Part shown: positions 11,087 through 41,992 of the stretch, piece by piece
How positions within the stretch are numbered: the first letter of the stretch is position 1
Layout of the letters: the number at the start of each line of letters is the position of its first letter
Source: Pirellulales bacterium
Lineage (GTDB): Bacteria > Planctomycetota > Planctomycetia > Pirellulales > UBA1268
Length of the DNA: 64,000 bases
Reading direction: 5' to 3'
NCBI GenBank assembly: GCA_044360305.1
Contig: JBIKKQ010000001.1
Location: forward strand, 6,760 to 70,759
Translations under genes and position numbers: made by a program
Notes under the pieces: model-generated
The model's input: only the letters and a program-made list of their open reading frames with translations
Databases searched by the model: none
Told to the model about the DNA's origin: nothing

Positions 11087-11596
11087 ATGACCAGCCAGAC
11101 GCCCACCGTTGACGACGCGATCACCGAGCTGAAGTCCCGGTTCGCCGCCGTGGAATCCGACACCTTCCGCGGCCAGGCGCGGGTCGTCGTCCCCGCCCCG
11201 GACTCCCTCGACGCCCTCCGCCTCCTGCGGCAGCTGGGCTTCGACCTGCTCGTGGACGTGACCTGCGTCGACTATCTCGAGTATCGCGGCGCCCGCCACC
11301 GCTACGGCCTCGTCTACCTGCTCGCCTCGACGGCCACGAATCGTCGGCTCACCGTCCGCGTGTTCGTGGACGATCCCGATCCGGCGGTCGCCAGCGTGGT
11401 GCCGCTGTGGGAGGGGGCGAACTGGCTGGAGCGCGAGGTCTGGGACCTGTTCGGCATCCGCTTCATCGGCCATCCCGACCTGCGCCGGCTGGTGATGCCC
11501 GAGGAGTTCACGGCCCATCCGCTGCGCAAGGACTACCCCCTGCAGGGCCGCGGCGAGCGGCACAACTTCCCCGTGATCACCCGGGAGCAGAGCTGA
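11087..11596 (+). CDS. nuoC: NADH-quinone oxidoreductase subunit C
   Basis: ANWLEREVWDLFGIRFIGHPDLRRLVMPEEFTAHPLRKDYPLQG. Confidence 0.9.
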   Translation: MTSQTPTVDDAITELKSRFAAVESDTFRGQARVVVPAPDSLDALRLLRQLGFDLLVDVTCVDYLEYRGARHRYGLVYLLASTATNRRLTVRVFVDDPDPAVASVVPLWEGANWLEREVWDLFGIRFIGHPDLRRLVMPEEFTAHPLRKDYPLQGRGERHNFPVITREQS

Positions 11597-12899: not shown

Positions 12900-13037
12900 G
12901 GCCGGGGTTGCCCGTGCCGATGAGCCGGCGTTGCCGGCCAGCGCAGCCAGGATGGCGAAGCGCAGCCGGCATCGAGTGAGCGCAGGCCAGGAGGGCCGCA
13001 GCGAACGTCCGGCGCGACGGCACGGGCAACCCCGGCC
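12900..13037. repeat. 20-bp perfect inverted repeat pair (12900-12919 / 13018-13037) with a 98-nt spacer, in the nuoD-nuoE gap
   Basis: GGCCGGGGTTGCCCGTGCCG and its exact reverse complement CGGCACGGGCAACCCCGGCC, read directly. An inner hairpin CCGGCGTTGCCGG lies near 12925. Confidence 0.85.
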
Positions 13038-13082
13038 GGCCCCGGCGACCAAGGTCTCACAGGCGCCGACACCATTCAACAC

Positions 13083-23708: not shown

Positions 23709-25448
23709 ATGAACCCGACGTCCTCCCTATCGTTCCAACTGCTCGCCCCGGAGATCGCGCTGGTGGCGGCGGCGCTCGTGGCCTGGCTGGGGGCCGCGTT
23801 TCTCGGCCTGCGAGCCGGCTGGCTCGTCGCCCTGGCGGGGATCGGTGGGGCCGCGATCCTCGCCGGTGGCGGACCGGCCGCCGGCACGGTGGCCTCCGGC
23901 GGCGTCGTCATCGACCCGTTCTCCAGCTTCATCCGCTGGACGGTCCTGTCGCTCGGGGCGCTGGTGGTGCTCGTTCAGGCGGGCGACCTGTTCGCGTCAG
24001 CATCGAGCCGGGGGTCCGGCCTGCGCCGCGGCGGCACCTGCGAGGAGGCGGGCACGCTCCTCGTGATGCTCGCCGGACTGTCGCTCGTCGGCGTCGCCGG
24101 CGACCTCGTGCTCCTGTTCGCGGGGCTCGAGCTGGTGTCGATCCCGACGTACGTCCTCCTCGCCCTCAAGCGAACCGACGCCCGCGGGCAGGAGGCGGGG
24201 CTGAAGTATTTCTTTCTCTCGCTCGTCGCCTCGGCCTTCTTTCTCTACGCGCTCGTCTGCCTGTACGGCATCGGCGGCTCGACCAGCCTGGCCGCGATCG
24301 CCCAGCGGCTCCACGCCGCGGACAGCAGCGCCGCCGACGCCTTCAGGTCGCTGCTGCCGGCGGCGCTCGGCATGGCGCTGGTCGGCGCCGCCTTCCGCAT
24401 GGCCGCCGTTCCGATGCACTTCTACGCTCCCGACGTCTACGAGGGGACGAGCCCGGGCAACGCCGCGGTCCTGTCCACGCTCCCCAAGGTCGCGGGCCTG
24501 GTGATTCTCGCCCGGGTGCTGGCCCTCGGCATCACCCCCGACGCCGGGCAGCCGGCCGCGGCGCCGGCGGCAGTCGCCTGGCTCGACATCCTCTGGCAAT
24601 TGGTCGCCGTGCTGGCGGCGATCACGATGACGGTGGGCAACGTGATGGCGCTCTGGCAGCGGAACCTGCGCCGGCTCCTCGCCTGCTCCTCGATCGCCCA
24701 CGCCGGCTACCTGCTCGTTGGCGTGGCGGCGGCCGCCGCGGGCGCCGCGGCCCGGGCCGGGCAGCCGCTCGGCGACGTCGGCGGCCTCGATGCCGGCTGG
24801 GTCCTGCGGATCGGCGGCATGTCGGCCGCGCTGTTCTACCTGCTCACCTACGCTCTGGCCACGATCGGGATCTTCGGCGGGCTCGCCTACCTCGGCCATC
24901 GCTGGCCCGAATGGACCGCGACCAGCGGCCCGCGACCGCCGCGTGAGGAGATCGCGACCGTGGACGACCTCGACGGCCTCGCGACCACCAACCCCGTCGC
25001 CGCGTTCGCCATCGCCGTGTTCCTGATCTCGCTGGCGGGCATCCCGCCGCTGCCGGGCTTCTGGGGCAAGCTGTCGCTGGCGACGGCGAGCCTCGCCGTG
25101 GACTGGAACGCGCCGCTGGTCGCCGGCAGCCGCCGGGCGTGGTTCGTGGGACTGGCGCTGGTGCTGGTGCTCAACGCCGCGATCGCCGCCGCCTACTACC
25201 TGCGCGTCATCGGGGCGATGTATTTCAAGTCGTCGAAGCGGGGCGTGCAGGCCGACGGCGGCCTGGCCGCCGGCGTGGCGATGCTCGTCTGCCTGGTCGC
25301 GGTGGCCGGCGTCTCGGTCGCCCCCCGGGGGCTCGTCGCCTGGACCCACGCCGCCGGTGACGCCGTCTCCGGCGGCGACCTTCCGGCCACCGAGGCCCGG
25401 GCGGCGGCCCGCGGCCCGGCCGCCACCCCGCTGGCGGGTCTGCGATGA
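23709..25448 (+). CDS. nuoN: NADH-quinone oxidoreductase subunit N
   Basis: GLELVSIPTYVLLALKR...LKYFFLSLVASAFFLYA...AAVPMHFYAPDVYEGTSPGNAAVLSTLPKVAG...SSIAHAGYLL. Confidence 0.92.
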   Translation: MNPTSSLSFQLLAPEIALVAAALVAWLGAAFLGLRAGWLVALAGIGGAAILAGGGPAAGTVASGGVVIDPFSSFIRWTVLSLGALVVLVQAGDLFASASSRGSGLRRGGTCEEAGTLLVMLAGLSLVGVAGDLVLLFAGLELVSIPTYVLLALKRTDARGQEAGLKYFFLSLVASAFFLYALVCLYGIGGSTSLAAIAQRLHAADSSAADAFRSLLPAALGMALVGAAFRMAAVPMHFYAPDVYEGTSPGNAAVLSTLPKVAGLVILARVLALGITPDAGQPAAAPAAVAWLDILWQLVAVLAAITMTVGNVMALWQRNLRRLLACSSIAHAGYLLVGVAAAAAGAAARAGQPLGDVGGLDAGWVLRIGGMSAALFYLLTYALATIGIFGGLAYLGHRWPEWTATSGPRPPREEIATVDDLDGLATTNPVAAFAIAVFLISLAGIPPLPGFWGKLSLATASLAVDWNAPLVAGSRRAWFVGLALVLVLNAAIAAAYYLRVIGAMYFKSSKRGVQADGGLAAGVAMLVCLVAVAGVSVAPRGLVAWTHAAGDAVSGGDLPATEARAAARGPAATPLAGLR

Positions 25449-26533
25449 GCACGGCCCCGACCGAGACCGCCGTCCGCAGCCTGCTCGGCGAGATCGCCGA
25501 TCCCGAGTCCGGCCGACCGCTCACGGAGATGGGCCAGGTCGTGGCGGTCGCGGCCGCCCCGGCGGCGATCGCCGTCACGGTCGGCCTCACGACCCACTCC
25601 GCCATCCTCTGGAACGCGACCCGGGGCCGGATCGAGGAGCTGCTCCGCAGCCGGTTTCCCGGCGTGCCGCAGGTGACGGTCACCATCGTGCCGCACGACC
25701 GGCCGCCTCCGAAGCTCGGCCAGATCGGCCTCGAGGCGAAGAGCGTGATCGCCGTCGGCTCCGGCAAGGGGGGCGTGGGCAAGAGCACGATCGCCGCCTC
25801 GATCGCCATCGGGCTCGCCCGGGCGGGCAGCCGCACCGGCCTCCTCGACGCCGACGTCTACGGGCCGAGCGTGCCCCACCTGCTCGGCCTCTCCGGCCGT
25901 CCGCAGATCGAGGATGGAAAGATCCTGCCGCAGTGGCTCGACGTCGGCCGCAGCCGGATGCCGACGATGTCGATGGGATTCCTCGTGCCGGCCGGCGAGG
26001 CGGTGGTGTGGCGCGGGCCGATGCTCCACGGGGCGATCACGCAGATGCTCCGCGACACCCGCTGGGGGCCGCTCGACTATCTCGTCATCGACATGCCGCC
26101 GGGCACTGGGGACATCGCGCTGACGCTCTCGCAGGTGCTGCCGCTGACCGGTGCCGTCGTGGTCTGCACGCCGCAGGACGTGGCCCTGCTCGACGCCACC
26201 AAGGCGATCGCGATGTTCCGCAAGGTCAACATCCCGCTCCTCGGCATGGTGGAGAACATGAGCTTCTTCATCTGCCCCGACACGGGGAAGCGGTACGACA
26301 TCTTCGGCACGGGCGGGGCGAAGCGGACCGCGCAGGAGCTGGACATCCCGTTTCTCGGCGAGGTGCCGATCCAGATCCCGATCCGCGAGCATGGCGACGC
26401 CGGGCGGACGGCGGCCAACTACGACGATCCGGCCGCGGCCCCGTATTTCGAGGCGATCTGCGCGCGGCTGGTCGGCACTCTCGCCGCGGCCACGGCCGCC
26501 CGACCGCCGCTCCCGTCGCTGCCGGTGCTCTGA
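25445..26533 (+). CDS. apbC: Mrp/ApbC/NBP35-family P-loop ATPase with N-terminal DUF59-like domain
   Basis: ATGA overlap with the nuoN stop. Walker A VIAVGSGKGGVGKSTIAASIA, then LLDADVYGPSVP and DYLVIDMPPGTGD. The usual CxxC is CPDT here (ENMSFFICPDTGKRYDIFG, 26273-26284). Confidence 0.88.
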   Translation: MSTAPTETAVRSLLGEIADPESGRPLTEMGQVVAVAAAPAAIAVTVGLTTHSAILWNATRGRIEELLRSRFPGVPQVTVTIVPHDRPPPKLGQIGLEAKSVIAVGSGKGGVGKSTIAASIAIGLARAGSRTGLLDADVYGPSVPHLLGLSGRPQIEDGKILPQWLDVGRSRMPTMSMGFLVPAGEAVVWRGPMLHGAITQMLRDTRWGPLDYLVIDMPPGTGDIALTLSQVLPLTGAVVVCTPQDVALLDATKAIAMFRKVNIPLLGMVENMSFFICPDTGKRYDIFGTGGAKRTAQELDIPFLGEVPIQIPIREHGDAGRTAANYDDPAAAPYFEAICARLVGTLAAATAARPPLPSLPVL

Positions 26534-26539
26534 TACGCG
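26364..26539. repeat. Left copy of the island-flanking direct repeat (functional 3' end of the mrp/apbC gene)
   Basis: Hand alignment with 36424-36593: 11 substitutions counted in the last ~155 nt plus one 6-nt indel. Both copies end ...GTGCTCTGATACGCG, and similarity stops right after it. Confidence 0.85.
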
Positions 26540-26682
26540 GCGGAGTCCTGGCCCCAGCCGCGGTTCACTCGATGCTGCCCGCCCCCCCGGCCCCCCCGGC
26601 GCTCGCCGGCCGACGAAGGGCGTGGCCTGCCTTGGAAAATCTGATCCAGCGGTTACCAAGGGGCGACGCTAACTCCGTTATC

Positions 26683-27992
26683 GGCCCATCGGGGATTTTG
26701 TGGGTGGCTCCGTAGTGGAGAATGCGGCTTCCCCCCGGAGGCAAGACGCATGTTCGACACGGAGCTCTATCAGCAGGTTCTCTTCTTGACCGCTCCTTGG
26801 AAGGTGACGGACGTGAGGCTCGATGTCGAGTCAACAGAGATCCACGTCCACGTCGAGCATCCCGAGGGCTGCCGCTGGAGCTGCCCGCATTGTAGCCGAG
26901 AGTTGGCCTGCTACGACCATGCGCCCGAGCGGCGGTGGCGGCATCTCAACACCTGCCAGTTCCACACGCTCGTCCATGCGCGTGTCCCACGGGTCGAGTG
27001 CCCCGAGCACGGAGTGGTGCAGGTCAAGGTTCCGTGGGCGGAGCCCCACGGCCGCTTCACCCTGCTCATGGAGCGGTTTGTGATCGACGTCCTCCAGGCC
27101 TGCCAGACCGTGAAGGGAGCATGCACCCTCGTCGGCATCTCCTGGGATCAGGCCTGGCACGTCTTGGATCGCGCTGTTGCCCGTGGGCTGGCCCGCAAGG
27201 AGGCAGACACGATCGCGCGTATCGGCATCGACGAGAAGGCATTCCGCAAGGGCCATCGGTACCTGACCATCGTCAACGACGTTGACCGGGGGACCGTGGA
27301 GTTCGTTGAGGAAGGCCGGGAAAAGGCGAGTTTGGCGGCATTCTACGAGTCCCGCACTCCGGAGCAGCTCGCGGGCATCGAGGCAGTGGCGATGGATATG
27401 TGGGAGCCCTACGTTCAAGCCACCCTCGAAGCCGTTCCTCTGGCTTCCTCAAAGATCGTCTTCGACCGCTTCCATGTCATGCAGCACATGACCGAAGCCG
27501 TGGATGTGGTGCGCCGCCGCGAGAATCGGCTGCTGACAGCTGAGGACGACGATCGCCTCAAGGGCACGAAGTACCTGTGGATCTCCTCCAAGGAGAACGT
27601 CCATCCCAAACGCCAGGCGGAGTTCCGCTTCCTCCGAGGAAGTGATCTCAAGACAGCCCGAGCCTGGACCATCAAGGAGAATCTGCGGCACCTGTGGTCG
27701 TTCCGTGTCGAGGGTTGGGCTCGTCGGTTCTTCTCTCAATGGAGCGGCTGGGCGATGCGGAGCCGCCTCGAGCCGATCAAGGCCGTAGCCCGCATGATCG
27801 ACCGCCGCCTCGACAACATCATCACCCACTGCCGCCATCAACTGACCAACGCCGTCGCCGAGGGTCTCAACAGCAAGATCATGGCCATCAAGCGTCGGGC
27901 CGGGGGCTACCGCAACGTCGGACACTTCAAGACCGTGATCTACTTCTACTGCGGCGGATTACGGCTCTACCCATGAAGTTCCCGGATGGACC
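26683..27992 (+). mobile_element. ISL3-family insertion sequence (~1.3 kb)
   Basis: Contains the ISL3 transposase gene. Imperfect terminal inverted repeats: left GGCCCATCGGGGATTTTGTGGGTGGCTCCGT, reverse complement of right GGTCCATCCGGGAACTTCATGGGTAGAGCCGT (about 25/33 with one gap). The transposase stop lies inside the right repeat. No 8-bp target duplication was found (CCGTTATC vs CCCATACA). Confidence 0.6.
26750..27976 (+). CDS. ISL3 family transposase
   Basis: 408 aa. Zn-finger-like N-terminus: WSCPHCSRELACYDHAPERRWRHLNTCQFHTLVHARVPRVECPEHGV. DDE region: IGIDEKAFRKGHRYLTIVNDVDRGTVEFV...VAMDMWEPY...VFDRFHVMQHM...NAVAEGLNSKIMAIKRRAGGYRN. Confidence 0.92.
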   Translation: MFDTELYQQVLFLTAPWKVTDVRLDVESTEIHVHVEHPEGCRWSCPHCSRELACYDHAPERRWRHLNTCQFHTLVHARVPRVECPEHGVVQVKVPWAEPHGRFTLLMERFVIDVLQACQTVKGACTLVGISWDQAWHVLDRAVARGLARKEADTIARIGIDEKAFRKGHRYLTIVNDVDRGTVEFVEEGREKASLAAFYESRTPEQLAGIEAVAMDMWEPYVQATLEAVPLASSKIVFDRFHVMQHMTEAVDVVRRRENRLLTAEDDDRLKGTKYLWISSKENVHPKRQAEFRFLRGSDLKTARAWTIKENLRHLWSFRVEGWARRFFSQWSGWAMRSRLEPIKAVARMIDRRLDNIITHCRHQLTNAVAEGLNSKIMAIKRRAGGYRNVGHFKTVIYFYCGGLRLYP

Positions 27993-28349
27993 CCCATACA
28001 AGACGACGTCCATCAGATGAGCCTTGTACATCAGATACCCCGTGCCGGCGTTCGCTGCCAGATCGACACCGAGGTTCACGATCGTTCCAGCTGCCGGCAC
28101 ACGTGCCGCCGAGTCGACGGCGATGTCAATCACCTGAATAGTTGCCAGAGCGAAATCGTATGGCCCACCGAGTGGCCTACGATCGCCGAGGGCGGGATTG
28201 ACAACAAGACCCCACACACCACGTTCCCCCGGCGGGGCGATCTCGTCCACGTGCCGAGCAGGGCTGCTGCCGGCCGGCTGTGGCACGAACCAGGATTTCC
28301 AACGCAGGCCACGGCGAAGGTGCCACGCACGGCCCCTGAACGCCTGCAT
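27993..28349 (-). pseudogene. Possible ORF fragment truncated by the IS right end
   Basis: The minus-strand ORF 27927..28349 reads ...PLGGPYDFALATIQVIDIAVDSAARVPAAGTIVNLGVDLAANAGTGYLMYKAHLMDVVLYG, then runs straight into the IS inverted repeat. No family recognised. Confidence 0.25.
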
Positions 28350-28351
28350 CT

Positions 28352-28384
28352 TGCCCAGATTTGGTGGCTGTCACCTTTATCCTC
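28352..28384. repeat. Conserved 33-nt element, copy A (8 nt downstream of the LRR paralog 1 stop)
   Basis: TGCCCAGATTTGGTGGCTGTCACCTTTATCCTC, versus copy B at 29382-29414 (2 mismatches). Confidence 0.8.
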
Positions 28385-28391
28385 TGAAATG

Positions 28392-29273
28392 TCAGCTGTC
28401 GGGTAGTTCCAGGGGCACGAACTCCTTCTCTTCGTATGTCCGATCTGTGTCGAAGAACTCCACCTCCTGGACCTTTTCCTCCGGGGGATCTGCTTCGTCC
28501 TCGTATTTCCCAACTTCTTCGTATGTCGGAGGCGCGAATGGGTCGGGGGTGAAGCGAAGATTCGGACAGGCTTCACGCAGGAGGTACGGAATCGTCGGTG
28601 GTTCGATGTTCGACCCGATATGAAGCTCCTGTAGTTGTGGCATTGCTTTGAATATCGGCAGGAGCCCGGGACTAACGGCCAGATTGTCTACATGAAGTAC
28701 CTGCAGGTGCGGCAGCCGCGCGAGAGGTTCGAGCTCCTCTGCCGTGACGGAGGCTTCAACGAACACGCTCCGCAGTGTCTTGATCTCCGCGAGCGCCTGA
28801 AAGACGTCGATTGCGGGTTTCTTACGGTCATAGCATCCGATGCCGATCGTTTCGAGGGCGGGGCAGCTTCCGAGAGATCGAACGTCAGCGGGAGAGACTT
28901 CGGTTTCGATCCACAGTCGCGAGAGACGCGGCAACCGAGCCAAAGAAGCCAGTACGCCCGGATCGAGCCGCCCTGACACGGAGAGTTGCTCGATATGCCG
29001 CGCCCGCGCGAGGTCGTTTGCGTCTCGGACCGTGAGTCCGTGCTCGGCATGAATTTTCGTCCATGCAGGCTTGTACTGCAACGGCCAGATGTAACGCAAC
29101 CGGTGCGTCGAAATGCGTGTGCTGTGTCCGCTGTGGCCGTTCTCCCAGCCGAGTTCCCGCAGCCGGAAGTCGATGTACCACGGCCAGGCCAACCGAAGTG
29201 CGAGCAACAAGCACGCGACAACGACCGCGGCAGTGAAGATGAAGACGGGCCATCTGGAAGTGACGGGAGTCAT
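28392..29273 (-). CDS. Membrane-anchored LRR-like (RNI-type) repeat protein, paralog 1
   Basis: Start at MTPVTSRWPVFIFTAAVVVACLLLALRLAWPWYIDFRLRELGWENG (29273), by analogy with paralog 2. It has one N-terminal TM helix. Repeats of ~25-28 aa follow: LARLPRLSRLWIE..., LAEIKTLRSVFVE..., LARLPHLQVLHVD..., AMPQLQELHIG. Confidence 0.75.
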   Translation of the reverse strand: MTPVTSRWPVFIFTAAVVVACLLLALRLAWPWYIDFRLRELGWENGHSGHSTRISTHRLRYIWPLQYKPAWTKIHAEHGLTVRDANDLARARHIEQLSVSGRLDPGVLASLARLPRLSRLWIETEVSPADVRSLGSCPALETIGIGCYDRKKPAIDVFQALAEIKTLRSVFVEASVTAEELEPLARLPHLQVLHVDNLAVSPGLLPIFKAMPQLQELHIGSNIEPPTIPYLLREACPNLRFTPDPFAPPTYEEVGKYEDEADPPEEKVQEVEFFDTDRTYEEKEFVPLELPDS

Positions 29274-29381
29274 GGGCTGATCACAGAGGGCCATCGGCGA
29301 GCGAGAGCGACCGACCACAACATGGTCAAGGGTCCTGTTCGTAAGCCAGGGTGACGCTGTGGCTTTCGTAGCGGCTGAACG

Positions 29382-29414
29382 TGCCCAGATTTGGTGCCTG
29401 GCACCTTTATCCTC
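29382..29414. repeat. Conserved 33-nt element, copy B (20 nt downstream of the LRR paralog 2 stop)
   Basis: TGCCCAGATTTGGTGCCTGGCACCTTTATCCTC. It contains the perfect palindrome GGTGCC-T-GGCACC. Confidence 0.8.
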
Positions 29415-29433
29415 CTCAGGAGTCGTGGCCCGC

Positions 29434-30285
29434 TCACTCCTGCAACGGCGAAGGGTTGTCTTGCTGTTCGAAGACGGTTTCGTCGTAGTTGGAGTCCGAC
29501 AAAGGCCCGCCGTCATCCGGCAACACCTTGAGCTTTGGGCAGGCATGCCGCAGCTCAGGGGCAAGATCCGGATATACGTTGCCACCGCCGAGGCCGACTT
29601 GTTGGAGTTGCGGCATGCCTTGGAATACCCGCGCCAGCCCTGGACTGGGCCGGAGACCCGGCACAATCAGAAAACGAAGGTTCGGCAGCCGCGACAATGG
29701 CTCGAGTTCTTCGGCCGTCACAGACGAGCCGATGACCACTCGCCGGAGCGTCTTGATTTCGGCTAGTGCCGCATAGAAATCCATCCCCTGCCCATCACTG
29801 CTGTCAACGTAGATCGACTCGAGGGACTGCGAGTCGCGTAGGTCACGTAGATCCTCTCCGCGGACATCCGTAATGAGTGACAGGTGCAGTAGGCGTGGCA
29901 GTCGAACTAAAGGAGCCAATGTGCCTGGGAGGATACGGCCGTCTACATGCAGTTTTTCGATTTGCCCAGCTCGCGACAGGTCTTTGGCGTCGCGACTTGT
30001 GAGACCGGCGCGGGCGTAGACCTCCTTCCATTCCGGTTTGTACCGCAACGGCCATGTGTAATGAATCTGCTGGCCGCCCCTGTAGACCGCGCTGCGCGAA
30101 CTGTAGGCAGCACCGCCGGGATTGAAGACCGCACTGCCCGGTTTATCCCCATTCTCCCAACCCAACCTCCCGAGACTGAGCTCGACGTACCACGGCCAGG
30201 CCCACTGTGTCCCGAAAATAATGGTCACCGCAAGCACGCCGGCGCCGGCCAGCAACCCGCGCCATCTCGAGGTGATTCGCTTCAT
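29434..30285 (-). CDS. Membrane-anchored LRR-like (RNI-type) repeat protein, paralog 2
   Basis: MKRITSRWRGLLAGAGVLAVTIIFGTQWAWPWYVELSLGRLGWENG...YTWPLRYKPEWKEVYARAGLTSRDAKDL...LAEIKTLRRVVIGSSVTAEELEPLSRLPNLRFL. Collinear with paralog 1. Confidence 0.8.
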   Translation of the reverse strand: MKRITSRWRGLLAGAGVLAVTIIFGTQWAWPWYVELSLGRLGWENGDKPGSAVFNPGGAAYSSRSAVYRGGQQIHYTWPLRYKPEWKEVYARAGLTSRDAKDLSRAGQIEKLHVDGRILPGTLAPLVRLPRLLHLSLITDVRGEDLRDLRDSQSLESIYVDSSDGQGMDFYAALAEIKTLRRVVIGSSVTAEELEPLSRLPNLRFLIVPGLRPSPGLARVFQGMPQLQQVGLGGGNVYPDLAPELRHACPKLKVLPDDGGPLSDSNYDETVFEQQDNPSPLQE

Positions 30286-30345
30286 CGGCTGAAGGGCCTT
30301 GGACTCACGCGACCTGAGCGGCCGCTTGGGGAAGGTGCACCGGGC

Positions 30346-30654
30346 TTACTTGACCTTCACGGTCTGGCTGAAACTTTCGTACGTGCTTTCGATTTCATCC
30401 GTTGTGGCTACGACCGACCACCGAATCGGCTCGTCTGACCAGCGTACGATGTCGGCCCATTGGTCCTTCGTCGGAGTCCACGACACCTCCAGCGGCAGAT
30501 CATTCGGCAGATTTGCAGGTTTGGGAATCTCGGTGCTGCCGCGGACGCTGATCCGGAGGCCTTGTGCGTTATAGAACCGGAGTTCGACGGTTCTGAACAG
30601 CCACTGGTCGGGACGTTTCACGCCGGGGACCCTTTCCAGCCCCAGCCGGGGCAC
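30346..30654 (-). CDS. Hypothetical 102-aa protein (no signal peptide)
   Basis: Only sizeable ORF in a lower-GC stretch, on the same strand as the neighbours. MPRLGLERVPGVKRPDQWLFRTVELRFYNAQGLRISVRGSTEIPKPANLPNDLPLEVSWTPTKDQW... Confidence 0.55.
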   Translation of the reverse strand: MPRLGLERVPGVKRPDQWLFRTVELRFYNAQGLRISVRGSTEIPKPANLPNDLPLEVSWTPTKDQWADIVRWSDEPIRWSVVATTDEIESTYESFSQTVKVK

Positions 30655-30740
30655 GAGGATTCTCTCACAAGACCTGGGTCAAGATTTGGGGAGGGGGTCA
30701 CTCTGGCCGAACTTTCCTTCGGTGAGCCGTACGTCGCGCA

Positions 30741-31298
30741 TCATTTCTTGTCTCGGTCCGGCTCACTGGCCTTGGGCTTGGGAAGTGCCAGCACGGCCTT
30801 GGACAATTCCTCGGCCGTCTTCGCCTCGATTACCGGAATGTCCTTCACGTCGATAGTGAACGGCTCGTACCCGGCCGCCACCATGCGCTCGTGAGCCACC
30901 TCCTCCTGCTTCTCCCCTGAGCGCAATTTGGCGAGCCCGTACACGAAGGTGACATCCCCCTTCTCGGGCAACTTCGCCCACACCAGGACCACCGAGACGC
31001 CCAACTCCCCGGCGAAGTCCGGCGTGGTGCCGTCGGCCCAAAACACGTCGGTCCCGACCCGCCCGTTCAGCGACCAGTACACGCCAGTCGTCCCACTCAC
31101 CCCAACTGCGGTGCCCGGCCTCACCCGCACAGCGAGGAGGTGGTACGTCCGACCGCCGGACTCCAGGGTCTTCCCCGCGACCTTCGCGACGGCGGTGATG
31201 GACTCGATGTCGGGTCTCCCGGCGTCCGGCTTCGGAGCTTGTGCGGTGGCGACCGCCGCGGTCATCGCGGCGAGGCTAAGTGCTAAACTCGATGTCAT
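30741..31298 (-). CDS. Secreted hypothetical protein (~185 aa) overlapping the end of the giant gene
   Basis: The ATG at 31298 gives MTSSLALSLAAMTAAVATAQA|PKP (Sec signal-like). It overlaps the last 23 nt of the upstream 1546-aa ORF (stop at 31276-31278). Confidence 0.65.
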   Translation of the reverse strand: MTSSLALSLAAMTAAVATAQAPKPDAGRPDIESITAVAKVAGKTLESGGRTYHLLAVRVRPGTAVGVSGTTGVYWSLNGRVGTDVFWADGTTPDFAGELGVSVVLVWAKLPEKGDVTFVYGLAKLRSGEKQEEVAHERMVAAGYEPFTIDVKDIPVIEAKTAEELSKAVLALPKPKASEPDRDKK

Positions 31299-34200
31299 CG
31301 AAGATCGCCCTCCCGGTGGCGGTGCGGTCGAACACAAACCGCACCTTAGTTATGGCCGACGAATCGAACGCCCGGCCGTTCGTCTTCAGGGCAGCCAGGT
31401 CGACTCTGTAAGTTTGCATCGCCGTTTTCGTGATGTTGTCGGGATCGACTTTGTACGGCCCGATCCGAGCCGCTGAGGGTACGGTCAACCCCCCGAGCCG
31501 GCCCACGTCGAAGTACACACTGTTGCCCGAGGCGTCGATCAACTCGGCCGTGAGCGACGTGGGGGTCGTGATCGACCGGTGCAGGCCCGCCCGGAACGAC
31601 AGGAACTTGGTGGTCGTAGCATCAACCCCGCCGAGAGGAGTTTGCTCGTAGTAACCCGTTCCGCCTCTGGCCTTGTTGTCCCACGCCAGTTCTACTCCAA
31701 TCTCCGTCGTGCCCTGGTAGTACCCCTCCGCGTTGTTGTCGAGCGAAGTATCGACCGCCGCTGCCGGAGCGGCTGGGGTGACGAGCCGCTCGCTCTTCGT
31801 AGACCCTCCGGAACTCGTATCGCCGAACTTGGGCTTGGCCTGGAAGTCGTCCAGCACACGCGCGGTGGACCGGTGGAACTGGGTCACGATCGGGTTGGGC
31901 ACGGCCGCCGCAGACAGCTTGGGGCCGATTTGCGCGGCAGGCCGACTGAAATACTCGAGGTACGGCCCCCCCCAGATCCACGCCAGCGTGTATCCGGCGA
32001 GGAGGTTCTCGTGGTACGCTCGGTCCTCGAGCCCGCCCCCAACCGCGTACACCCCGACCGTGCCCCCCGCCGGCGTGCCCATCCCCCCGCGGAGATCGAC
32101 GACGTCGAACGCTCCGTCGATCGTGCTCTTCGCGTCGTTGTACGGCCACGACCTGTTGAACAGATTGTGGCTCACGCCCGGGACGAACAGCGATGCCTTG
32201 ACCGTTGTGGCCCTCGCGGCGTCGTACAGCTTCAAGCCGCCGGCGTAGTCGACGTCGCCGTCGGCCGCCCCGTGGATACTGAGATAAGGCCTCGCCCCGA
32301 CCGATTGTTCTCGGAAAGCGGTGGGGGCCAGCGAGATGACCCGCGAGATTGCGAACGGGGCGATCTTTCCACCGGGGGCAGCGGCCGCGAACGGTCCGGT
32401 CAGCGTGTCCACCATGTTCGCCAGTTCCACCACCGCCTCCCCGCCACGAGAATGCCCCAGCAGGGTCACATCGGCGAAGTCAATGTGACCCTCGATCTTA
32501 CTGCCACTCCCTGCGGCGTTCATCGCACGAATCCGATCGACGTTTTTGGCAGCTGCGTATGCCCGAACCAGGATACCCGGACCCCACCTGTAATACCGGT
32601 CAAGATCGACGCTGACGGACGCATACCCCTGCTGAGCTAGCCGCTCCTGGAGGTACGTGTAGCCCAGGTAGTTTTCGTCGCTGGTGATCGCGTCGGCCTG
32701 AGCCGCTGTGAGGGCGCCCGCGGCTACCCCTGACAGTGCCGTGCTTCGCGGTAAGTGGTTCCCGTGGAGGATGACGACCAGCGGGAACGGCCCTCCAGGC
32801 GCGGCGGGGGCCTTCTCAACCGGCATCGCGGCCCCGACAAGAGGAGTCGGGTAGTACACGCGGCCATGGATCCAGTGGTCGGTGACCGTCCCGGGGAATC
32901 CGTCGTAGCCGGCGGGTGTGGTGAATTGGTCAGCCGCTTTGGCCGTAGCTCCGCTGCTCCCGTAGTCGATGTACCCGGCGTCGTAAGCGGCCGGCTTCTT
33001 GAGCGGGTCATATACGATCTGCACCTCGGCATCTTTCGGGTTCGTCGTGAACACCCCCACGATGTCCCCTGGGTCCAGTTGCCCGTTCTGGCCGGGCTCG
33101 CCTTTGTCGTCTGCGATGTCGATCACCACGTCATACTGCCCCACGGGAGCATGGTCGGTGAGCGTCCGCGTATTCGCGGCGAGCGACACCGCACTGAGCG
33201 GGGCGGTCGGTGTCACGCTTACGTTCTTCGACGCGTACGTGCCGTCCGCGGCCCATTGGGCAGGTGTCCGTGTGGGGTGGATCAGGAACCTCGCTTGTGG
33301 TCCGCCCGCCAGCGTCTCGTAGCCGGTCAACTGCGACCACGTCGCGGGGTCCAGCGCGATCGAGACGGGCTGCGTGTGGTTGAACGTATGCACGTACTGG
33401 AAGTCGGGCGCGCCGCTCAGCGGAATGCCGGCCAGGCCGGCGACGTCTGTCACTCGGAAGGCGACCCGATCGGTCTGAATCACGCGGCCACGGTACGTGT
33501 ACTCCACAAGGACATCCGATATGCCGCCTTTCGTGCTGCCGCCGACCAGGAACCGCTTGGCCGGGGCCGCGGCGGTCAACTCGGCGGCGGGTACTTGTGT
33601 CGCGGGCGACGCCTTCTTGCCGTCTGCCGTCCACAGGTCGAGCGAGCGCGTGGTGACCGAGATCGCGCCGCGGGCCGACGGGACCGTGGCCGCCACCTTC
33701 AGCGGCAGCATCAGGTACTTGTTCTGTGCGAACGTGGCTTCGTCAACGTTCACCGGGTTGTATCGCACGGTCGAGGGGTTGGTCGCCTCGGTGTTGTCGT
33801 CTACCCCGAATGCCGCCAGGTCGAAGTACACCGCCGTCGCCTTGTCCGCAACCTTTGCATTGGGGAAGCTGGCCGGGATCGGGGCGTACTCGGCCGCCAG
33901 AACAGGGTTGGCCGCGTCACGCCGGAAGTGGGGCATTGTCGGCGCTCCGGCAGCCGGCGTGCCGGCTGCGTCGACGACAACGAACTGGGTTCCCCCGACC
34001 TGGTCGAGCGTGAGCGATGACCACGCCTTCGCTTTCCCGTCGGAGCCATTCATCCACAGGGGCGTGGGGAGTGTCAGCACGGCGTCGCCGGCCGCGGCGA
34101 GCGCCGGAGCGACGCGGAATCGGTACAAGGCCCCGCTCGGCACGGCGTCGGGTTGGGCGGATGCAGCGGCACCGAGATTGATCGGAGCGAGGTAATTCTG

Positions 34201-35916
34201 CCCCTTGGCGGCGTCGAAACGCACCTCCAAGATCAGCTCCTCGTACCCGGTCCGGCCGGCTGAGTTGGTCGCCCTGAACAGGTATCGTTTCCGTGTCCCG
34301 AGGGGAAGTGTGCGAAGCGCGTCAAGCCCGGCCAACTCGTACCGCTTCGATACCGACGAGGAGAAAACCCCGCCCGCTTGACCGTCCGGCGCCACCTCGA
34401 GCGGCGTCCACGCATTTCCATCGATCGAGACGGCAATCTGGGGGACCGGGCCGAGCCGATCACGGGCGACCAGCGTGCGCTCGGCGAACTCGTACGTCGC
34501 CCCGGCGAGGTTGTCGGGGGTCAGGTCGGGAACCGTTACCACCGGGTTTGGCCGGTATCGCGACACCATGTCGCCGGCGTCCTCCCAGGCGTCACCCGCC
34601 TTTCGCTGGATGTCGAGGTCGGCCACCGTGCCCCGCACCGCGTCCGTCAGGTTTCCGATCCCGGCCGGTGCCCCTTCGAGCGTGACCGTGATTCGGGTGT
34701 CGCCGGCGGCGGCACTGGCCTGGACGGTCTCGAGGTAGAACGTGATCGTTTGCCTGGCCGTGACGGCAGGGTCCAGCCCGAGTTGGGCGAGCGTGTACCT
34801 TCCGGGAGCCACGTAGTCACCCCCGCCGGTCTTGATCGATTTGTCGAACGCCGCTGCATTCCGCAGCGTCGCCCCCGGCTTGGCCCAGAGCCGCGCAGTT
34901 CCCGGTGCCGGCGAATACACATCGGTGGCCCTGTCGTAAGTGACGGCGAGCGGGTTCGAGCCCTTGTAGTCGATGACAACGACCGCCTGGCTGAGGTCGA
35001 TCGAACCGGTCGGAAGCGTGAGGACGACGGGAACGAATTCCTCCGCCACAGTGGCACGCGCGACCGCGTCTTTGTCGGCGGCATCCATGTCGGGGAGGTC
35101 CAGACCGTAGCCGTCCGCGAAGTCCGGGACAAAGTCACCGTCCTTGTCCTCGTCGTTGACGGCCACCACCTTGCCCGGTCCCGTGTCTTCGATCCTGTCA
35201 TCTTTCCCGGCCGGGCTGTTGTCGGGGTCGATCGCGCCGTCGTTGTTGGAATCCACGTCGAGATCGACGGACGGCAGCGTCAGGTCGGCCCCGAAGACGA
35301 CGTTGTTGGTGCCGAGGCCGTTGAGGGACACGGTGACCCTGTCGCCGATCGGGCCGACGCCGGCCTTGTTTGGAAAGAACGCCTTGTAGGCCGACGCCGG
35401 GTCGGCAGAGCCGTAGAGCTTCGGGATCGCCGTCATGTCGACAAACATCTGGTAGCTCTTGGCCGCGGGCTGGGCGAAGGCGCGGAAGGCGAAGTCGTAG
35501 CTCGTGCCGCTGCCGACGCCGCCGGGCAGCTGGACGGTGGCGGCGGGCAGTTGGCCGGTGGCGGCTTCACGCACGTTGATCGCGGACCCGCGCCAGGAGG
35601 CACTGCCCTCGAACTGGACGGTGAAATCGCCCGGTTCGGCGTAGGTGCTGAAGCTCGTGCGGCCGTCGTTATTGAGCCTGATGGTGCGGCCGTCGCTGTC
35701 CTTTTCGAACGAGGCCGGCTGGTAGCTGTCGTTGTCGAGGTCGAAGCGGATCGTGGGCGAGAAACCGGCGATGCTGCCGTCACTGGCCGTGGCCCGGACG
35801 CCGATGCCGAGGATCGTATTGCCCGCCTCAAAGGCTCCGGCAGAGACGCGAATCTCCCTCCCGCCGGGAATCGGAGCGAACCGCCCTGCAATGAATCCGT
35901 CGGGCGCGGGAGCCAC
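31276..35916 (-). CDS. Giant exported protein body: Asp-rich Ca-binding-like motifs, beta-rich repeats, alpha/beta-hydrolase domain (GHSRG) and C-terminal beta-sandwich-like domain
   Basis: Uninterrupted 1546-codon frame from the GTG at 35916. Hydrolase hallmarks: PFPLVVILHGNH (about 32761-32796), nucleophile elbow VTLLGHSRGGEAV (Ser codon 32449-32451), HGAADGDVD, PGVSHNLFN (about 32161-32190). Asp-rich VDLDVDSNNDGAIDPDNSPAGKDDRIED...VNDEDKDGDFVPDFADGYG. The frame stays open and protein-like upstream to an in-frame TGA at 36049-36051. Confidence 0.8.
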   Translation of the reverse strand: MAPAPDGFIAGRFAPIPGGREIRVSAGAFEAGNTILGIGVRATASDGSIAGFSPTIRFDLDNDSYQPASFEKDSDGRTIRLNNDGRTSFSTYAEPGDFTVQFEGSASWRGSAINVREAATGQLPAATVQLPGGVGSGTSYDFAFRAFAQPAAKSYQMFVDMTAIPKLYGSADPASAYKAFFPNKAGVGPIGDRVTVSLNGLGTNNVVFGADLTLPSVDLDVDSNNDGAIDPDNSPAGKDDRIEDTGPGKVVAVNDEDKDGDFVPDFADGYGLDLPDMDAADKDAVARATVAEEFVPVVLTLPTGSIDLSQAVVVIDYKGSNPLAVTYDRATDVYSPAPGTARLWAKPGATLRNAAAFDKSIKTGGGDYVAPGRYTLAQLGLDPAVTARQTITFYLETVQASAAAGDTRITVTLEGAPAGIGNLTDAVRGTVADLDIQRKAGDAWEDAGDMVSRYRPNPVVTVPDLTPDNLAGATYEFAERTLVARDRLGPVPQIAVSIDGNAWTPLEVAPDGQAGGVFSSSVSKRYELAGLDALRTLPLGTRKRYLFRATNSAGRTGYEELILEVRFDAAKGQNYLAPINLGAAASAQPDAVPSGALYRFRVAPALAAAGDAVLTLPTPLWMNGSDGKAKAWSSLTLDQVGGTQFVVVDAAGTPAAGAPTMPHFRRDAANPVLAAEYAPIPASFPNAKVADKATAVYFDLAAFGVDDNTEATNPSTVRYNPVNVDEATFAQNKYLMLPLKVAATVPSARGAISVTTRSLDLWTADGKKASPATQVPAAELTAAAPAKRFLVGGSTKGGISDVLVEYTYRGRVIQTDRVAFRVTDVAGLAGIPLSGAPDFQYVHTFNHTQPVSIALDPATWSQLTGYETLAGGPQARFLIHPTRTPAQWAADGTYASKNVSVTPTAPLSAVSLAANTRTLTDHAPVGQYDVVIDIADDKGEPGQNGQLDPGDIVGVFTTNPKDAEVQIVYDPLKKPAAYDAGYIDYGSSGATAKAADQFTTPAGYDGFPGTVTDHWIHGRVYYPTPLVGAAMPVEKAPAAPGGPFPLVVILHGNHLPRSTALSGVAAGALTAAQADAITSDENYLGYTYLQERLAQQGYASVSVDLDRYYRWGPGILVRAYAAAKNVDRIRAMNAAGSGSKIEGHIDFADVTLLGHSRGGEAVVELANMVDTLTGPFAAAAPGGKIAPFAISRVISLAPTAFREQSVGARPYLSIHGAADGDVDYAGGLKLYDAARATTVKASLFVPGVSHNLFNRSWPYNDAKSTIDGAFDVVDLRGGMGTPAGGTVGVYAVGGGLEDRAYHENLLAGYTLAWIWGGPYLEYFSRPAAQIGPKLSAAAVPNPIVTQFHRSTARVLDDFQAKPKFGDTSSGGSTKSERLVTPAAPAAAVDTSLDNNAEGYYQGTTEIGVELAWDNKARGGTGYYEQTPLGGVDATTTKFLSFRAGLHRSITTPTSLTAELIDASGNSVYFDVGRLGGLTVPSAARIGPYKVDPDNITKTAMQTYRVDLAALKTNGRAFDSSAITKVRFVFDRTATGRAIFDDIEFST

Positions 35917-36048
35917 GGCTTTGACCGGGTCTCCGCTGATCGCGTCGCCGGCGAACGCGAACGTGGCGGTGTAGACCTCGTAGGTGTCCCTGCCCGTCGT
36001 TCCACCGGAACCGTAGATGCCGCCTGCGGTGGAGAGCCCGCGGCTCGT

Positions 36049-36234
36049 TCAGCAGGTCCAGGAGAGCCCGCCGTCAATGGCCACGCCGGCGAGCATGGCG
36101 CGGGATTCGAGCGGTTCGGCGCCGATGGGCCGGCGGCTCAGGCTGCGGGCGGAGCGACGGCGCCGCGGCTGGGCCGTGCGGCCAACGAACGCGGCGATAA
36201 GCGAACGGGAACGGCGGGAAAGGTTGCGAAGCAT
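36049..36234 (-). CDS. Detached N-terminal leader of the giant gene (61 codons ending at an in-frame TGA)
   Basis: MLRNLSRRSRSLIAAFVGRTAQPRRRRSARSLSRRPIGAEPLESRAMLAGVAIDGGLSWTC*. It is in the same frame as 31276..35916, exactly 44 codons upstream of its GTG. I recognise the ...EPLE.R.MLAG motif from N-termini of large planctomycetal exported proteins. Confidence 0.55.
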   Translation of the reverse strand: MLRNLSRRSRSLIAAFVGRTAQPRRRRSARSLSRRPIGAEPLESRAMLAGVAIDGGLSWTC

Positions 36235-36385
36235 TGGTGTACCGAAGGCAGGAGGAAAACAGGCAGGCATCGGCGGGGCGGCGAGGATCCCCCGCACGTG
36301 CACGATCAGCGCGTGACGTGGCGCGAGGGCCTCGCTCGCGGGACGGTAACGTACCGGGCGGGGGGGGCGTCAATGGGCCGCCGAT

Positions 36386-36404
36386 GAAATCTCGATGAGA
36401 TTTC
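36386..36404. promoter_or_regulatory. AT-rich perfect palindrome GAAATCTC-GAT-GAGATTTC upstream of the island operon
   Basis: Read directly. It lies ~150 nt upstream of the leader ATG (36234) and ~20 nt from the right island repeat. Confidence 0.35.
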
Positions 36405-36423
36405 GCTTCAGGCCCGCGAAGGC

Positions 36424-36593
36424 TGCCGATCCCGACCCGCGAGCATGGCGACGCCGGGCGGACGGCCGCCAACTACGATGATCCGGCCGCGGCCCCGTAT
36501 CTCGAGGCCATCTGCACGCGGCTGGTCGGCAATCTCGCCGCGGCGACGGCAGCCCGACCGCCGCTCCCCGCGCTGCCCGTGCTCTGATACGCG
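36424..36593 (+). pseudogene. Right copy of the flanking repeat: orphan 3' fragment of an mrp/apbC allele
   Basis: Encodes ...REHGDAGRTAANYDDPAAAPYLEAICTRLVGNLAAATAARPPLPALPVL*, versus ...PYFEAICARLVGTLAAATAARPPLPSLPVL* in the intact gene. Same stop position. 7 of the 11 substitutions I counted are synonymous. Confidence 0.8.
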
Positions 36594-36614: not shown

Positions 36615-36944
36615 TCAGTGCGCCGCGGCTTTCGAGAACAGGTTCAGGACGACGACGCCGGCCACGATCAGTCCCATGCCGAGCAGCGCCGCCGCGTCGA
36701 GCTTCTGGCCCATGAACAGCCAGCCGATCGCGGCCACGAGCGTCACGCCCGCGCCCGACCAGACCGCATAGGCCACTCCCACCGGAATCGTGTCGAGCGT
36801 GCGCGAGAGGAAAAAGAAGGCCAGGCCGTAGCCCACCACGACCGCCAGGCTCGGCAGCGGCTTCGTGAAACCCGCGGACGCCCTCAAGAAACTCGTCCCG
36901 ACCACCTCGGCCACGATCGCGATCGCCAGATAGATCCAGTGCAT
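36615..36944 (-). CDS. SMR-family small multidrug efflux protein (EmrE/QacE-like)
   Basis: 109 aa, 4 TM helices. [23 protein letters not shown]...[30 protein letters not shown], with the conserved membrane Glu in AEVVGT. Confidence 0.88.
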
Positions 36945-37087: not shown

Positions 37088-37861
37088 TCAATACATCCAG
37101 AGCCGAAGCCCCTGACACGCCGCCGCCGGCTGCGGCGTGCGCAGCGTCCGCCGCGCGAGCGACCGCACCTCGGCCGCCCGCATGCCGACCGTCGCCCAGT
37201 CGGCGAACGTCGCCCGCGGCCGGCGCGCGGCCGGCGGCAGGCCCCAGGCATCCCCCACCCGCTGCCAGAGGTCGTCGAGCCGCGGCCGCCGCAGGTGCAG
37301 GGCGTCGAACCCATACCAGCCGCCGGGCTGCTCGATGAAGGCGGCCCCCGACTCGGCGGCGATCGCCCGCAGCTCCTCGTCGAGCCACGCCGCCCCCTCC
37401 TGGATCCCATCGAGCGACAGCGGACAGCCGGGCACGTAGACCGTGCGCATCAGCCGGTAGCGAACCCGCCCGACGCCCGCGATGCTCTCCAGCGGCAGGC
37501 CGACGACCGCGATCCGGGCGCCGCGGTCGCGGAGCCGACCCACGGCCGTGCGGACGGCCGTCGCCACCGCGGCGACGCCGAGTCCATAGAGCAGTTCGTT
37601 GCCCACGTCCATGACGAGCGCCGCGGGCGCCGACACCTGCTCGCGGTCGAGCGCCCGCCACAGGCCGCTCGCGAGGATCGACGGCAGCCGGCGCATACCG
37701 ACCCGCGACGTGACCGCGTACCCGCGGCCGTGCCCCGCCGCCACGAACAGATCGGCCGGTGCGGCAGGCTGGGTACCAGCCCTGGCCCGGACCGCGGCCG
37801 CAAGCCGGGCCAGACCGCGTGACACGTTGCTCGCCCCGAGGACGACGAACCGGTCGCTCAT
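37088..37861 (-). CDS. SGNH/GDSL-like hydrolase family protein
   Basis: Start at MSDRFVVLGASNV (37861). Block-like motifs: GASN (block I), DVGNEL (block III), DALH (block V). Confidence 0.55.
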   Translation of the reverse strand: MSDRFVVLGASNVSRGLARLAAAVRARAGTQPAAPADLFVAAGHGRGYAVTSRVGMRRLPSILASGLWRALDREQVSAPAALVMDVGNELLYGLGVAAVATAVRTAVGRLRDRGARIAVVGLPLESIAGVGRVRYRLMRTVYVPGCPLSLDGIQEGAAWLDEELRAIAAESGAAFIEQPGGWYGFDALHLRRPRLDDLWQRVGDAWGLPPAARRPRATFADWATVGMRAAEVRSLARRTLRTPQPAAACQGLRLWMY

Positions 37862-40681: not shown

Positions 40682-41992
40682 TCAGCCGCGTTGACGCGGT
40701 TCGGGCAGCCCCCAGGCGACCGCCCCCCCGGCCGCGATCACCAGGGCCCCGACGAGAAACACCGGCCGGAAACCGACGACGTCGATCCCCCAGCCCACCA
40801 GCGGCGAGATCGCGAACGGGGCCGCCAGCGCGGCCCCGACGAGGCTCACGTAGCGGGCGTGTTCGCCGGGCCGCGGCGCGAGTTCCAGGGCGTAGTTCGT
40901 GAACATCGTCAGCGCGATCGGATTCAGCCCCAGCGGCGCGTAGACGAGCCAGAACCAGCCCGCCGCGACGGCCGGCGGCAGGTAGGAAAGCGCCGTCACC
41001 AGCACCGGCGTGAGCGCCGCGCCCCCCACGAGCCAGGCGAGCACCAGCCGGGTCCCGCGCCGGTCCGCGACCGGGCCGGCCACGAGGCTGGCGCACGCGG
41101 TGGCCGCGTTCTGCACCACGACCCACGTCAGCAGGCTGCCGCGCGGGCAGCCGAGGTCGTCGCGGGCGAAGGCCTGATAGTGGGGGAAGAGCATGAGCAC
41201 GGCCGAGAACATCGCCGCCACCACCGCCAGGCGAACCAGCGCCGGATCGGCGGCGACCGCCTCGCGCCAGCCGGCCAGCCCCGGCCGCGGACCGGCGGCG
41301 GCCGCGGGCCGATCGGCGGGCTCGTCGAGCAGCGCGGGAATCGCGGCGGCCAGACCGAAGAAGCCCGCCGTCGCCGCGAAGATCCGCGGGAAGCCGTCCG
41401 CCGCGGCGAGCCACGGGCCGAGGAGGGCCACGGCCGCCACGATCGCCAGGATGCTCCCGATCGTCACGCTGACCACCATGGCCCGGCCGCGCTGCCCCGG
41501 CGGAATCAGCTTGCCGCGCAGCGCCGCAGCCACGAGCTGGTTGAGCCCGTTGGCCACCGAGAAGGTCGCGTAGACGAGCAGGAACAACACCGCCAGCAGA
41601 TCCGGACGGACGGCCTGCAGCGGCTGCCAGGCGACCGCCAGCACCGCGAAGCAGGCGGCCATCGCCAGGCTCGTGCGGACGAGCGTCCACTTCTTCACCG
41701 GCCGGCGGCCGAGCACGCCGGCGAAGGCCAGCGGCGGCAGGCTCTGCCCCGCCCGGTTGAGCACCGGGAGGAACCCGCGCAGCAGGCCCGAATCGACGAC
41801 CGCGTCGAGCACCGCAGGCATGATGATGGTCTCGGTCTTGAAGATCCACCCCACCCGGACGACGACCTGATAGGCCTCGAGCCGGAGGATGTTGCGGGCT
41901 TCACGGCCGGGGTCGGGGCCGCCGACGGTCCCGCTCGCGTTGCATCCGGGGCCGGCAGGGGTAGGATTTGCGGATGTCGGCGGCGGGTTCAT
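40682..41992 (-). CDS. MFS-type transporter
   Basis: Only the last 436 codons of ORF 40682..43174 are used (start MNPPPTS at 41992). About 12 hydrophobic helices. The upstream part of that ORF is antisense to the lactonase gene. Confidence 0.7.
   Translation of the reverse strand: MNPPPTSANPTPAGPGCNASGTVGGPDPGREARNILRLEAYQVVVRVGWIFKTETIIMPAVLDAVVDSGLLRGFLPVLNRAGQSLPPLAFAGVLGRRPVKKWTLVRTSLAMAACFAVLAVAWQPLQAVRPDLLAVLFLLVYATFSVANGLNQLVAAALRGKLIPPGQRGRAMVVSVTIGSILAIVAAVALLGPWLAAADGFPRIFAATAGFFGLAAAIPALLDEPADRPAAAAGPRPGLAGWREAVAADPALVRLAVVAAMFSAVLMLFPHYQAFARDDLGCPRGSLLTWVVVQNAATACASLVAGPVADRRGTRLVLAWLVGGAALTPVLVTALSYLPPAVAAGWFWLVYAPLGLNPIALTMFTNYALELAPRPGEHARYVSLVGAALAAPFAISPLVGWGIDVVGFRPVFLVGALVIAAGGAVAWGLPEPRQRG

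Follow-up and report, generated by a model that had tools for sequence, protein, structure and literature searches.

The stretch of DNA analysed here, called the window throughout, comprises 64,000 nucleotides (nt) from a Pirellulales bacterium (assembly GCA_044360305.1, contig JBIKKQ010000001.1, positions 6,760 to 70,759), and our subject is an island of about 10 kb in it that is bracketed by two diverged copies of the 3′ end of the housekeeping gene mrp (also called apbC). The mrp gene is whole at the left border, a promoter-less fragment of an mrp 3′ end stands at the right border, and the genes in between are absent from the related loci with which we compared them. The explanation we favour, to which we give about an even chance, is that a single-crossover (Campbell-type) insertion at the mrp 3′ end left the region behind as its scar; an integrase would have catalysed the insertion, and the element would since have become immobile and begun to decay.

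Two diverged copies of the mrp 3′ end

The gene and the two copies are as follows.

25445–26533, plus strand: intact mrp/apbC gene, 362 amino acids (aa), with matches to Pfam ParA/NUBPL (1.7e-92) and FeS_assembly_P; the last gene after the nuo operon, with nuoN upstream
26374–26539, plus strand: left repeat copy, comprising 160 nt at the end of mrp and the 6 nt that follow the stop codon, defined by sequence comparison
36428–36593, plus strand: right repeat copy, a promoter-less mrp 3′ fragment of 52 codons, the stop codon and TACGCG, defined by sequence comparison

The copies form a direct repeat of 166 nt that aligns without gaps and with 12 mismatches (154/166 nt, 92.8% identity), the longest perfect block being 30 nt at the 5′ edge. 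The first-pass annotation, which was made by a model from the letters and open reading frames (ORFs) of this DNA, had recognized the repeat and described it as differing by 11 substitutions and one 6-nt indel; the repeat itself stands but the count does not, as the indel is seen only if the left end of the repeat is moved out by ~10 nt, across an internal GATCC repeat (VPIQIPI versus LPI--PT), and this extension is ambiguous. Both copies retain the mrp frame and the same TGA, and the differences are skewed in the manner of coding DNA: seven of the 12 are synonymous third-position changes and five are non-synonymous, giving a ratio of non-synonymous to synonymous divergence (dN/dS) of 0.27 with a dS of ~0.17 (P = 0.033 against neutrality). 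The claims that frame and stop are preserved and that seven of the changes are synonymous are thereby confirmed, and so is the abrupt end of similarity, which falls right after the hexamer TACGCG that the copies share past the stop codon; the DNA downstream of the two copies is unrelated. The right copy lacks the 5′ part of the gene, carries an in-frame stop immediately upstream and, by its sequence, is a pseudogene relic. A public gene call in a 17-kb JGI contig (P0123) decodes TGA in the right-copy region as Trp (MKSRW...PVLW), which looks like annotation under the wrong genetic code.

The island belongs to an uncultured freshwater lineage of Pirellulales/Planctomycetia that is represented by metagenome contigs in JGI and ENA. 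Exact-protein look-ups in these two resources yielded more than 30 freshwater metagenome contigs that match the region at 99.4–100% identity and that jointly cover both repeat copies and all junctions. Every contig reaching either copy has the same structure, and the same junctions are found on either side of both copies in many samples and from two assembly pipelines. Because so many contigs from different samples and assemblers agree, the repeat structure is real and no product of assembly. The island was present in every population contig examined and appears to be fixed in the host population.

Comparison with the closest species-level genome (L001, in which Mrp is 93% identical and the left flank shows ~84% nucleotide identity) bears on the history of the two copies. 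The left copy differs from L001 at 11 positions and the right copy at 19, while the copies differ from each other at 12; the left copy is thus 93% identical to this sister species, consistent with ~91% over the entire mrp gene, and dS between the copies is comparable to the divergence from L001. At three of the five amino-acid differences the right copy retains the clade-consensus residues L, T and N, and it is the functional left copy that is derived there. A derived Phe codon (TTC) is common to the left copy and L001 and absent from the right copy, while two synonymous states (CTG and GCG) and the post-stop hexamer are common to both copies and not found in L001. Four changes are unique to the right copy, one of them (I-to-T) affecting an Ile that is otherwise invariant. 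The synonymous divergence and the retained L/T/N consensus support the earlier view that the copies are two diverged alleles of a coding 3′ end and not a fresh duplication, and the right copy resembles an allele, diverged about as far as between species, that once functioned and has started to decay. On this evidence, either of the two may be native. In a mosaic test for the crossover point, the informative sites were conflicting and too few, and a chimeric Mrp C-terminus query of the right-copy type returned short fragments only and no donor allele; the best donor match (P0027, which shares L/T/N) was rejected, its lineage being only 82.5% identical in DNA.

A proposed insertion at mrp and the alternatives

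Unrelated DNA follows directly after both copies, which excludes a simple tandem duplication; the arrangement calls for one reciprocal crossover that joined the chromosome to a circle carrying an mrp tail. In the explanation we favour, a circular DNA bearing its own, diverged version of the final ~166 bp of an mrp gene would have recombined with the resident mrp 3′ end, leaving mrp whole with the left copy and displacing a promoter-less 3′ fragment, the right copy, ~10 kb downstream. The crossover, for which the 30-nt perfect block at the repeat's 5′ edge is the probable location, would have been catalysed by a site-specific integrase that the element itself carried, as in the insertion of e14 and phage 21 into icd of E. 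coli, and the integrase module would have been lost later in a deletion associated with an ISL3 insertion sequence (IS) at the left edge. What is left would be an element that is fixed in the population, immobile and decaying, with a cargo consisting of a member of a modular secreted-protein family, proteins resembling leucine-rich repeat (LRR) proteins and small accessory genes.

The insertion is supported by the gene order in relatives, for which the features at and beyond the right border are needed.

36383–36427, no strand: junction segment of 45 bp, G+C content (GC) 0.56, with the palindrome AAATCTC-GAT-GAGATTT, between the edge of homology to a paralogue (36382) and the right repeat copy
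36615–36944, minus strand: gene for a small multidrug resistance (SMR) transporter, Pfam Multi_Drug_Res 2.8e-31
37088–37861, minus strand: g351, a gene call of 257 aa; going rightwards from mrp, the first gene that related species share as its neighbour; tblastn matches in L001–L020 and L031

The comparison set consisted of 80 species-level related loci and 14 viral contigs, with 17 species used for synteny between mrp and g351. These 17 related species share the order nuoN, mrp, a variable gap and g351, and none of them has island genes, a second mrp tail or an SMR gene there; the enclosed island genes are likewise absent from the 80 related loci. According to tblastn, g351 lies 9 bp to 6 kb downstream of mrp in L001–L020 and L031, and the gap, of corresponding length, is a variable slot whose genes are unrelated from one species to another. 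Across L001–L020 its contents include a gluconokinase-like gene, a DUF1501/PSD-type gene, an FAD oxidase gene and, together, GH28 and ATPase genes, and in L002 the right flank of mrp is inverted. As SMR is not found beside mrp in any relative, the chromosomal backbone resumes by synteny at 37088 and not at the SMR gene, as the empty site proposed in the first-pass annotation would have it. An SMR homologue that is 94% identical occurs at L120:6001–6336 of a co-occurring lineage, in a conserved AAA-SMR-TauE-DUF2237 context; the copy in the window is therefore a translocated or extra copy, which would have arrived earlier or else belong to the variable region. The use of this closest homologue to establish SMR as a native flank was abandoned, the similarity being limited to the ORF and uninformative.

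At the left border, three features separate the mrp gene from the cargo.

26540–26682, no strand: spacer of 143 bp with poly-C tracts, GC 0.71, between the left repeat copy and the IS
26683–27992, plus strand: ISL3-family IS of 1310 bp, transposase at 26750–27976, Pfam DDE_Tnp_ISL3 9e-72 and NCBIfam transpos_ISL3 8.5e-95
27993–28313, minus strand: segment X, the 5′ part of an ORF truncated by the right end of the IS; an open frame with no family match

The IS has imperfect terminal inverted repeats of 33 nt (23/33 positions matching), and its right end is fixed by contig L081, a possible repeat-induced chimera that follows the window exactly as far as 27992. An 8-bp target duplication was sought at its ends and is absent, the flanks reading ccgttatc and cccataca, which agrees with the initial description of an ISL3 element lacking such a duplication. 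The missing duplication and the truncated ORF are consistent with an adjacent deletion or rearrangement at one end of the IS. It is because the IS lacks a target duplication, truncates an ORF and sits on the usual integrase side that we favour the loss of an integrase in an ISL3-associated deletion. The 143-bp spacer has no homologue in the 80 related loci. Homopolymer-rich tracts lie immediately inside both island borders (CCCGCCCCCCCGGCCCCCCCGG at 26579–26600 and G8 at 36360–36367). Terminal motifs considered as element ends (a 23-nt inverted repeat at 26621–26643 and 28291–28313, with a similar motif at ~36390–36430) were dropped because a local-alignment scan of the window yields chance matches that are equal or better.

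Several results weigh against an integrase-mediated insertion. Neither an integrase nor a resolvase (Phage_integrase, Resolvase) was found among the island ORFs or the called genes of 15445–46944, that is, ~10 kb on either side, and the observation that no integrase remains therefore holds; as a consequence, attL and attR, the names under which the first-pass annotation presented the copies, are labels that we infer. An empty site, modelled as the left mrp anchor, 160–172 nt and the SMR-side anchor, had 0 matches in 241 million metagenome records, and the proposed arrangement of mrp followed directly by SMR at 36615 was not seen in relatives either. A second mrp tail within 10 kb is absent from the 80 species-level loci and the 14 viral contigs, so that the suggested recurrence of the repeat around different cargo in other genomes found no example. 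The SMR gene, as the supposed native flank, is not syntenic in any relative. Furthermore, the left copy and not the right one is nearer to L001 (11 versus 19 differences), which is the opposite of the simplest e14-like expectation that the displaced copy is the native one. Base composition was offered as a further sign of insertion, and the enclosed DNA is indeed lower in GC (0.63 in the IS, 0.60 in the LRR region and 0.67 in the large-gene region, against 0.71 in the flanks), but a chromosomal paralogue of the giant cargo gene (L140) likewise has a GC of 0.63 in an ordinary chromosomal setting, and the compositional argument for a foreign origin is weakened accordingly. What stands of the proposed attL/attR scar is the insertion topology, the allele-like divergence of the copies, the intact mrp gene and the absence of the cargo from 17 species, whereas an integrase, an empty site and another user of the site are missing.

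Candidate users of the site were considered and rejected. The IMG/VR contigs with mrp at their edge, which would have made mrp a prophage attB, run into mutS and then the integrase, and a 21-mer match in L139 is unrelated. Contig L105, which had the appearance of an alternative integration context, proved to be joined, in reality or by assembly, to the paralogous P0006 locus across a 1.15-kb 5′ module common to both. At 28299–28313, L092 and L096 part from the window, and in both contigs divergence rises towards the breakpoint, as it does in L105; they may likewise be joins with a paralogous locus, either chimeras or recombinants. Their tail (L113) contains no mrp and no integrase.

The strongest alternative keeps the same topology and assigns the crossover to RecA of the host. 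A non-replicating circle bearing cargo and an mrp-tail fragment of another lineage would have recombined by homology, and the circle may have arisen by one-ended rolling-circle transposition of an IS91-family element downstream of mrp. We regard this as possible, though doubtful. In its favour, no integrase is present, the 30-nt perfect block is long enough for RecA, and the end of homology just past the stop codon is expected anyway, the intergenic DNA of the sister species being unalignable. In support of an IS91 source, contigs L115–L118, which derive from another co-occurring lineage and four samples, carry an IS91-family Y2 transposase without its zinc-finger N-terminus 55–95 bp downstream of the mrp stop codon and in the same orientation (e.g. 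L115:429–1341), an orientation that puts mrp on the terIS side of the transposase. In addition, an IS91 zinc-finger fragment (Pfam 2.4e-13) abuts the end of the cargo at LRR-like protein 1 in L092 and L096. IS91 elements are known to mobilise DNA beyond terIS in 1–10% of events, and without target duplication (PMC13181058). On the other side, the window contains no IS91 sequence. The IS91 copies are fragmentary, and no oriIS, terIS or CTTG/GTTC target tetranucleotide could be recognised at the junction at 28313 or on the downstream side of the transposase remnants. L092 and L096 could themselves be chimeras, or recombinants with a paralogous locus, of the kind shown for L105. Nor is the L115 lineage the donor, since its mrp tail matches the right copy at only 82.5% identity. 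The variant left cargo border in L092:17887–19576 and L113 also holds an internally deleted IS91-like transposase, 63-nt inverted repeats, a gene for a PEP-CTERM protein and a candidate ISKra4-like transposase fragment, the last judged by eye from its ORF translation only.

It is very unlikely, in our view, that the mrp tail was duplicated in place, that the right copy decayed and that unrelated events later brought the cargo into a slot prone to accumulate junk. The gap between mrp and g351 does hold unrelated genes in many species, the right copy does have its four unique changes (among them I-to-T at an otherwise invariant residue), and CTG, GCG and TACGCG are common to both copies as against L001. 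Yet the divergence is skewed to synonymous changes, the right copy shows the consensus L/T/N at sites where its functional counterpart is derived, it lacks the TTC (Phe) of the left copy and L001, and, with unrelated DNA beginning 6 nt past the stop codon of both copies, all of the cargo would have to have been inserted exactly at the junction of a 172-nt duplication. The remaining idea, that the right copy is a chance similarity or the assembly artefact which the first-pass annotation had named as a possible objection, is effectively refuted, for although assemblies of this population do yield chimeras at repeats (L105, possibly L081 and L092), a match of 154/166 nt is far beyond chance and the more than 30 independent contigs, from many samples and two assembly pipelines, agree on the same junctions.

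Relation to known systems

The closest parallel to the insertion we favour is e14 of E. coli, where icd runs into the element and a C-terminal pseudogene, icdC, lies at the far end (PMC13626634); ~160 nt of the 3′ end of the gene are duplicated there, with differences that are mostly conservative (PMC13626634; Hill et al. 1989 cited there). In the window, as with e14 and phage 21 in icd, the target is a housekeeping protein gene that is kept intact, and a C-terminal pseudogene fragment marks the far end. In contrast to the island, e14 has its own integrase and excisionase, SOS-induced excision and a known empty site, whereas no recombinase, empty site or excision product was found here, although no search was aimed at the circle junction. 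The hosts differ as well, the island residing in a planctomycete and carrying cargo that is not phage-like.

More generally, integrative elements, including integrative and conjugative elements (ICEs), target the 3′ ends of protein genes, as ICESt3 does in fda and other elements do in guaA or rpsI, and the classic islands use tRNA genes. Like the island, these elements have accessory cargo and direct repeats made from the 3′ end of a target that stays intact, and they often decay through insertion sequences; they differ from it in carrying a tyrosine or serine recombinase beside one att site and in having repeats that are usually shorter and identical. The copy of ISL3 resembles its family in its transposase (zinc ribbon, helix-turn-helix and DDE_Tnp_ISL3), its size of 1.3 kb and its imperfect terminal inverted repeats, and departs from it in lacking the 8-bp target duplication.

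For the crossover by RecA, the relevant precedent is the complex class 1 integron. Toleman et al. reportedly proposed, in 2006, that a circle of ISCR1 (IS91-like, with terIS lost) is rescued by homologous recombination. ISCR1 is always tied to the 3′ conserved segment (3′-CS), and partial duplications of the 3′-CS are known (PMC6218425). In these integrons, as here, a conserved segment is partly duplicated around captured genes, the counterpart in the window being the mrp tail on both sides of the cargo. Unlike in these integrons, there is no IS91 or ISCR element inside the island; IS91 relics occur only in the variant contigs and in another lineage, and no oriIS was identified.

A broader proposal, which is speculative and which we think rather improbable, is that the mrp/apbC 3′ end is a genuine recombination target in freshwater Pirellulales. 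It could be used either by an undescribed family of integrase-borne elements or by IS91-like elements behind mrp that capture its tail together with adjacent genes and whose circles are rescued by homologous recombination. If true, IS91 capture behind mrp would be an environmental, non-clinical counterpart of the formation of ISCR1 complex integrons, shuffling a polymorphic secreted-protein family, and the IS91 relics near mrp constitute a lead in this direction. Should the integrase-catalysed insertion prove correct, a planctomycete example with mrp/apbC as its target would join the short list of islands in the 3′ ends of housekeeping genes that keep the gene intact, and such scars would be seen to outlast the loss of the recombinase. 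The island is a degraded case of a known type of feature and overturns nothing in current understanding. In practical terms, the right-hand mrp fragment should be marked as a pseudogene and the gap between mrp and g351 as a variable slot in this clade.

Cargo genes and minor observations

Between segment X and the right-hand junction segment, the cargo forms a one-strand array for which families were sought in Pfam, NCBIfam, PADLOC and PDB.

28392–36234, minus strand: the whole array, from gene calls: a pair of LRR-like paralogues, two small ORFs and a giant gene, each listed below
28392–29273, minus strand: LRR-like protein 1, 293 aa, with weak LRR_14/LRR_4 matches; paralogue of LRR-like protein 2
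29434–30285, minus strand: LRR-like protein 2, 283 aa, hydrophobic over a segment near the N-terminus; paralogue of LRR-like protein 1
30346–30654, minus strand: small ORF, 102 aa, with no known family in Pfam, NCBIfam and PADLOC scans
30741–31265, minus strand: small ORF, 174 aa, with no known family in NCBIfam and PADLOC scans
31276–36234, minus strand: giant gene for a modular secreted protein, from gene calls and paralogue comparison

The giant gene is intact, with 1652 aa, in the more diverged contig L094 (L094:10711–15669), while in the window and most population contigs it is split by an in-frame TGA at 36049–36051 into parts of 61 aa and 1546 aa; the gene is a case of segregating pseudogenisation. 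Residues 1–360 of its product share 60–85% identity with more than 10 Planctomycetia proteins that have other C-termini (DUF900, DUF2515, RHS, PAD). At the DNA level, its promoter and first ~1 kb (window 35230–36382, 1.15 kb) are 95.6% identical to L140:7535–8687, which is the 5′ end of the P0006 gene (with a DUF2515 C-terminus) in a guaA-surE-kinase-Glrx-HAD locus. The giant gene is thus a member of a multi-copy planctomycete family in which a conserved N-terminal module is combined with swapped C-termini, resembling polymorphic toxins. Beyond the first ~360 residues the giant protein has no match in Pfam, NCBIfam, PADLOC or PDB, and neither there nor among the ORFs downstream did these databases reveal a toxin domain or a cognate immunity gene.

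Both LRR paralogues are followed immediately, on their 3′ side, by a 33-nt motif, TGCCCAGATTTGGTGSCTGKCACCTTTATCCTC (28352–28384 and 29382–29414), and a sequence resembling it, CCAAATTTGGTGGCTGGCAC, is found 3′ of g351 in the sister species (L001:~11235–11262). The motif may be a conserved 3′-end or terminator-like element.

Rfam and tRNA scans returned nothing relevant to the island. Elsewhere in the window, ARAGORN called a 91-nt tRNA-Val(cac) at 40952–41042 on the minus strand, which is probably a false call; a scan of the whole window at the Rfam gathering threshold reported no tRNA. Finally, a dispersed repeat of ~143 nt, which has no Rfam match, occurs with 75–82% identity at 12900–13040 of the window, at ~18660–18800 of L081, in three copies in L007 and in L031.

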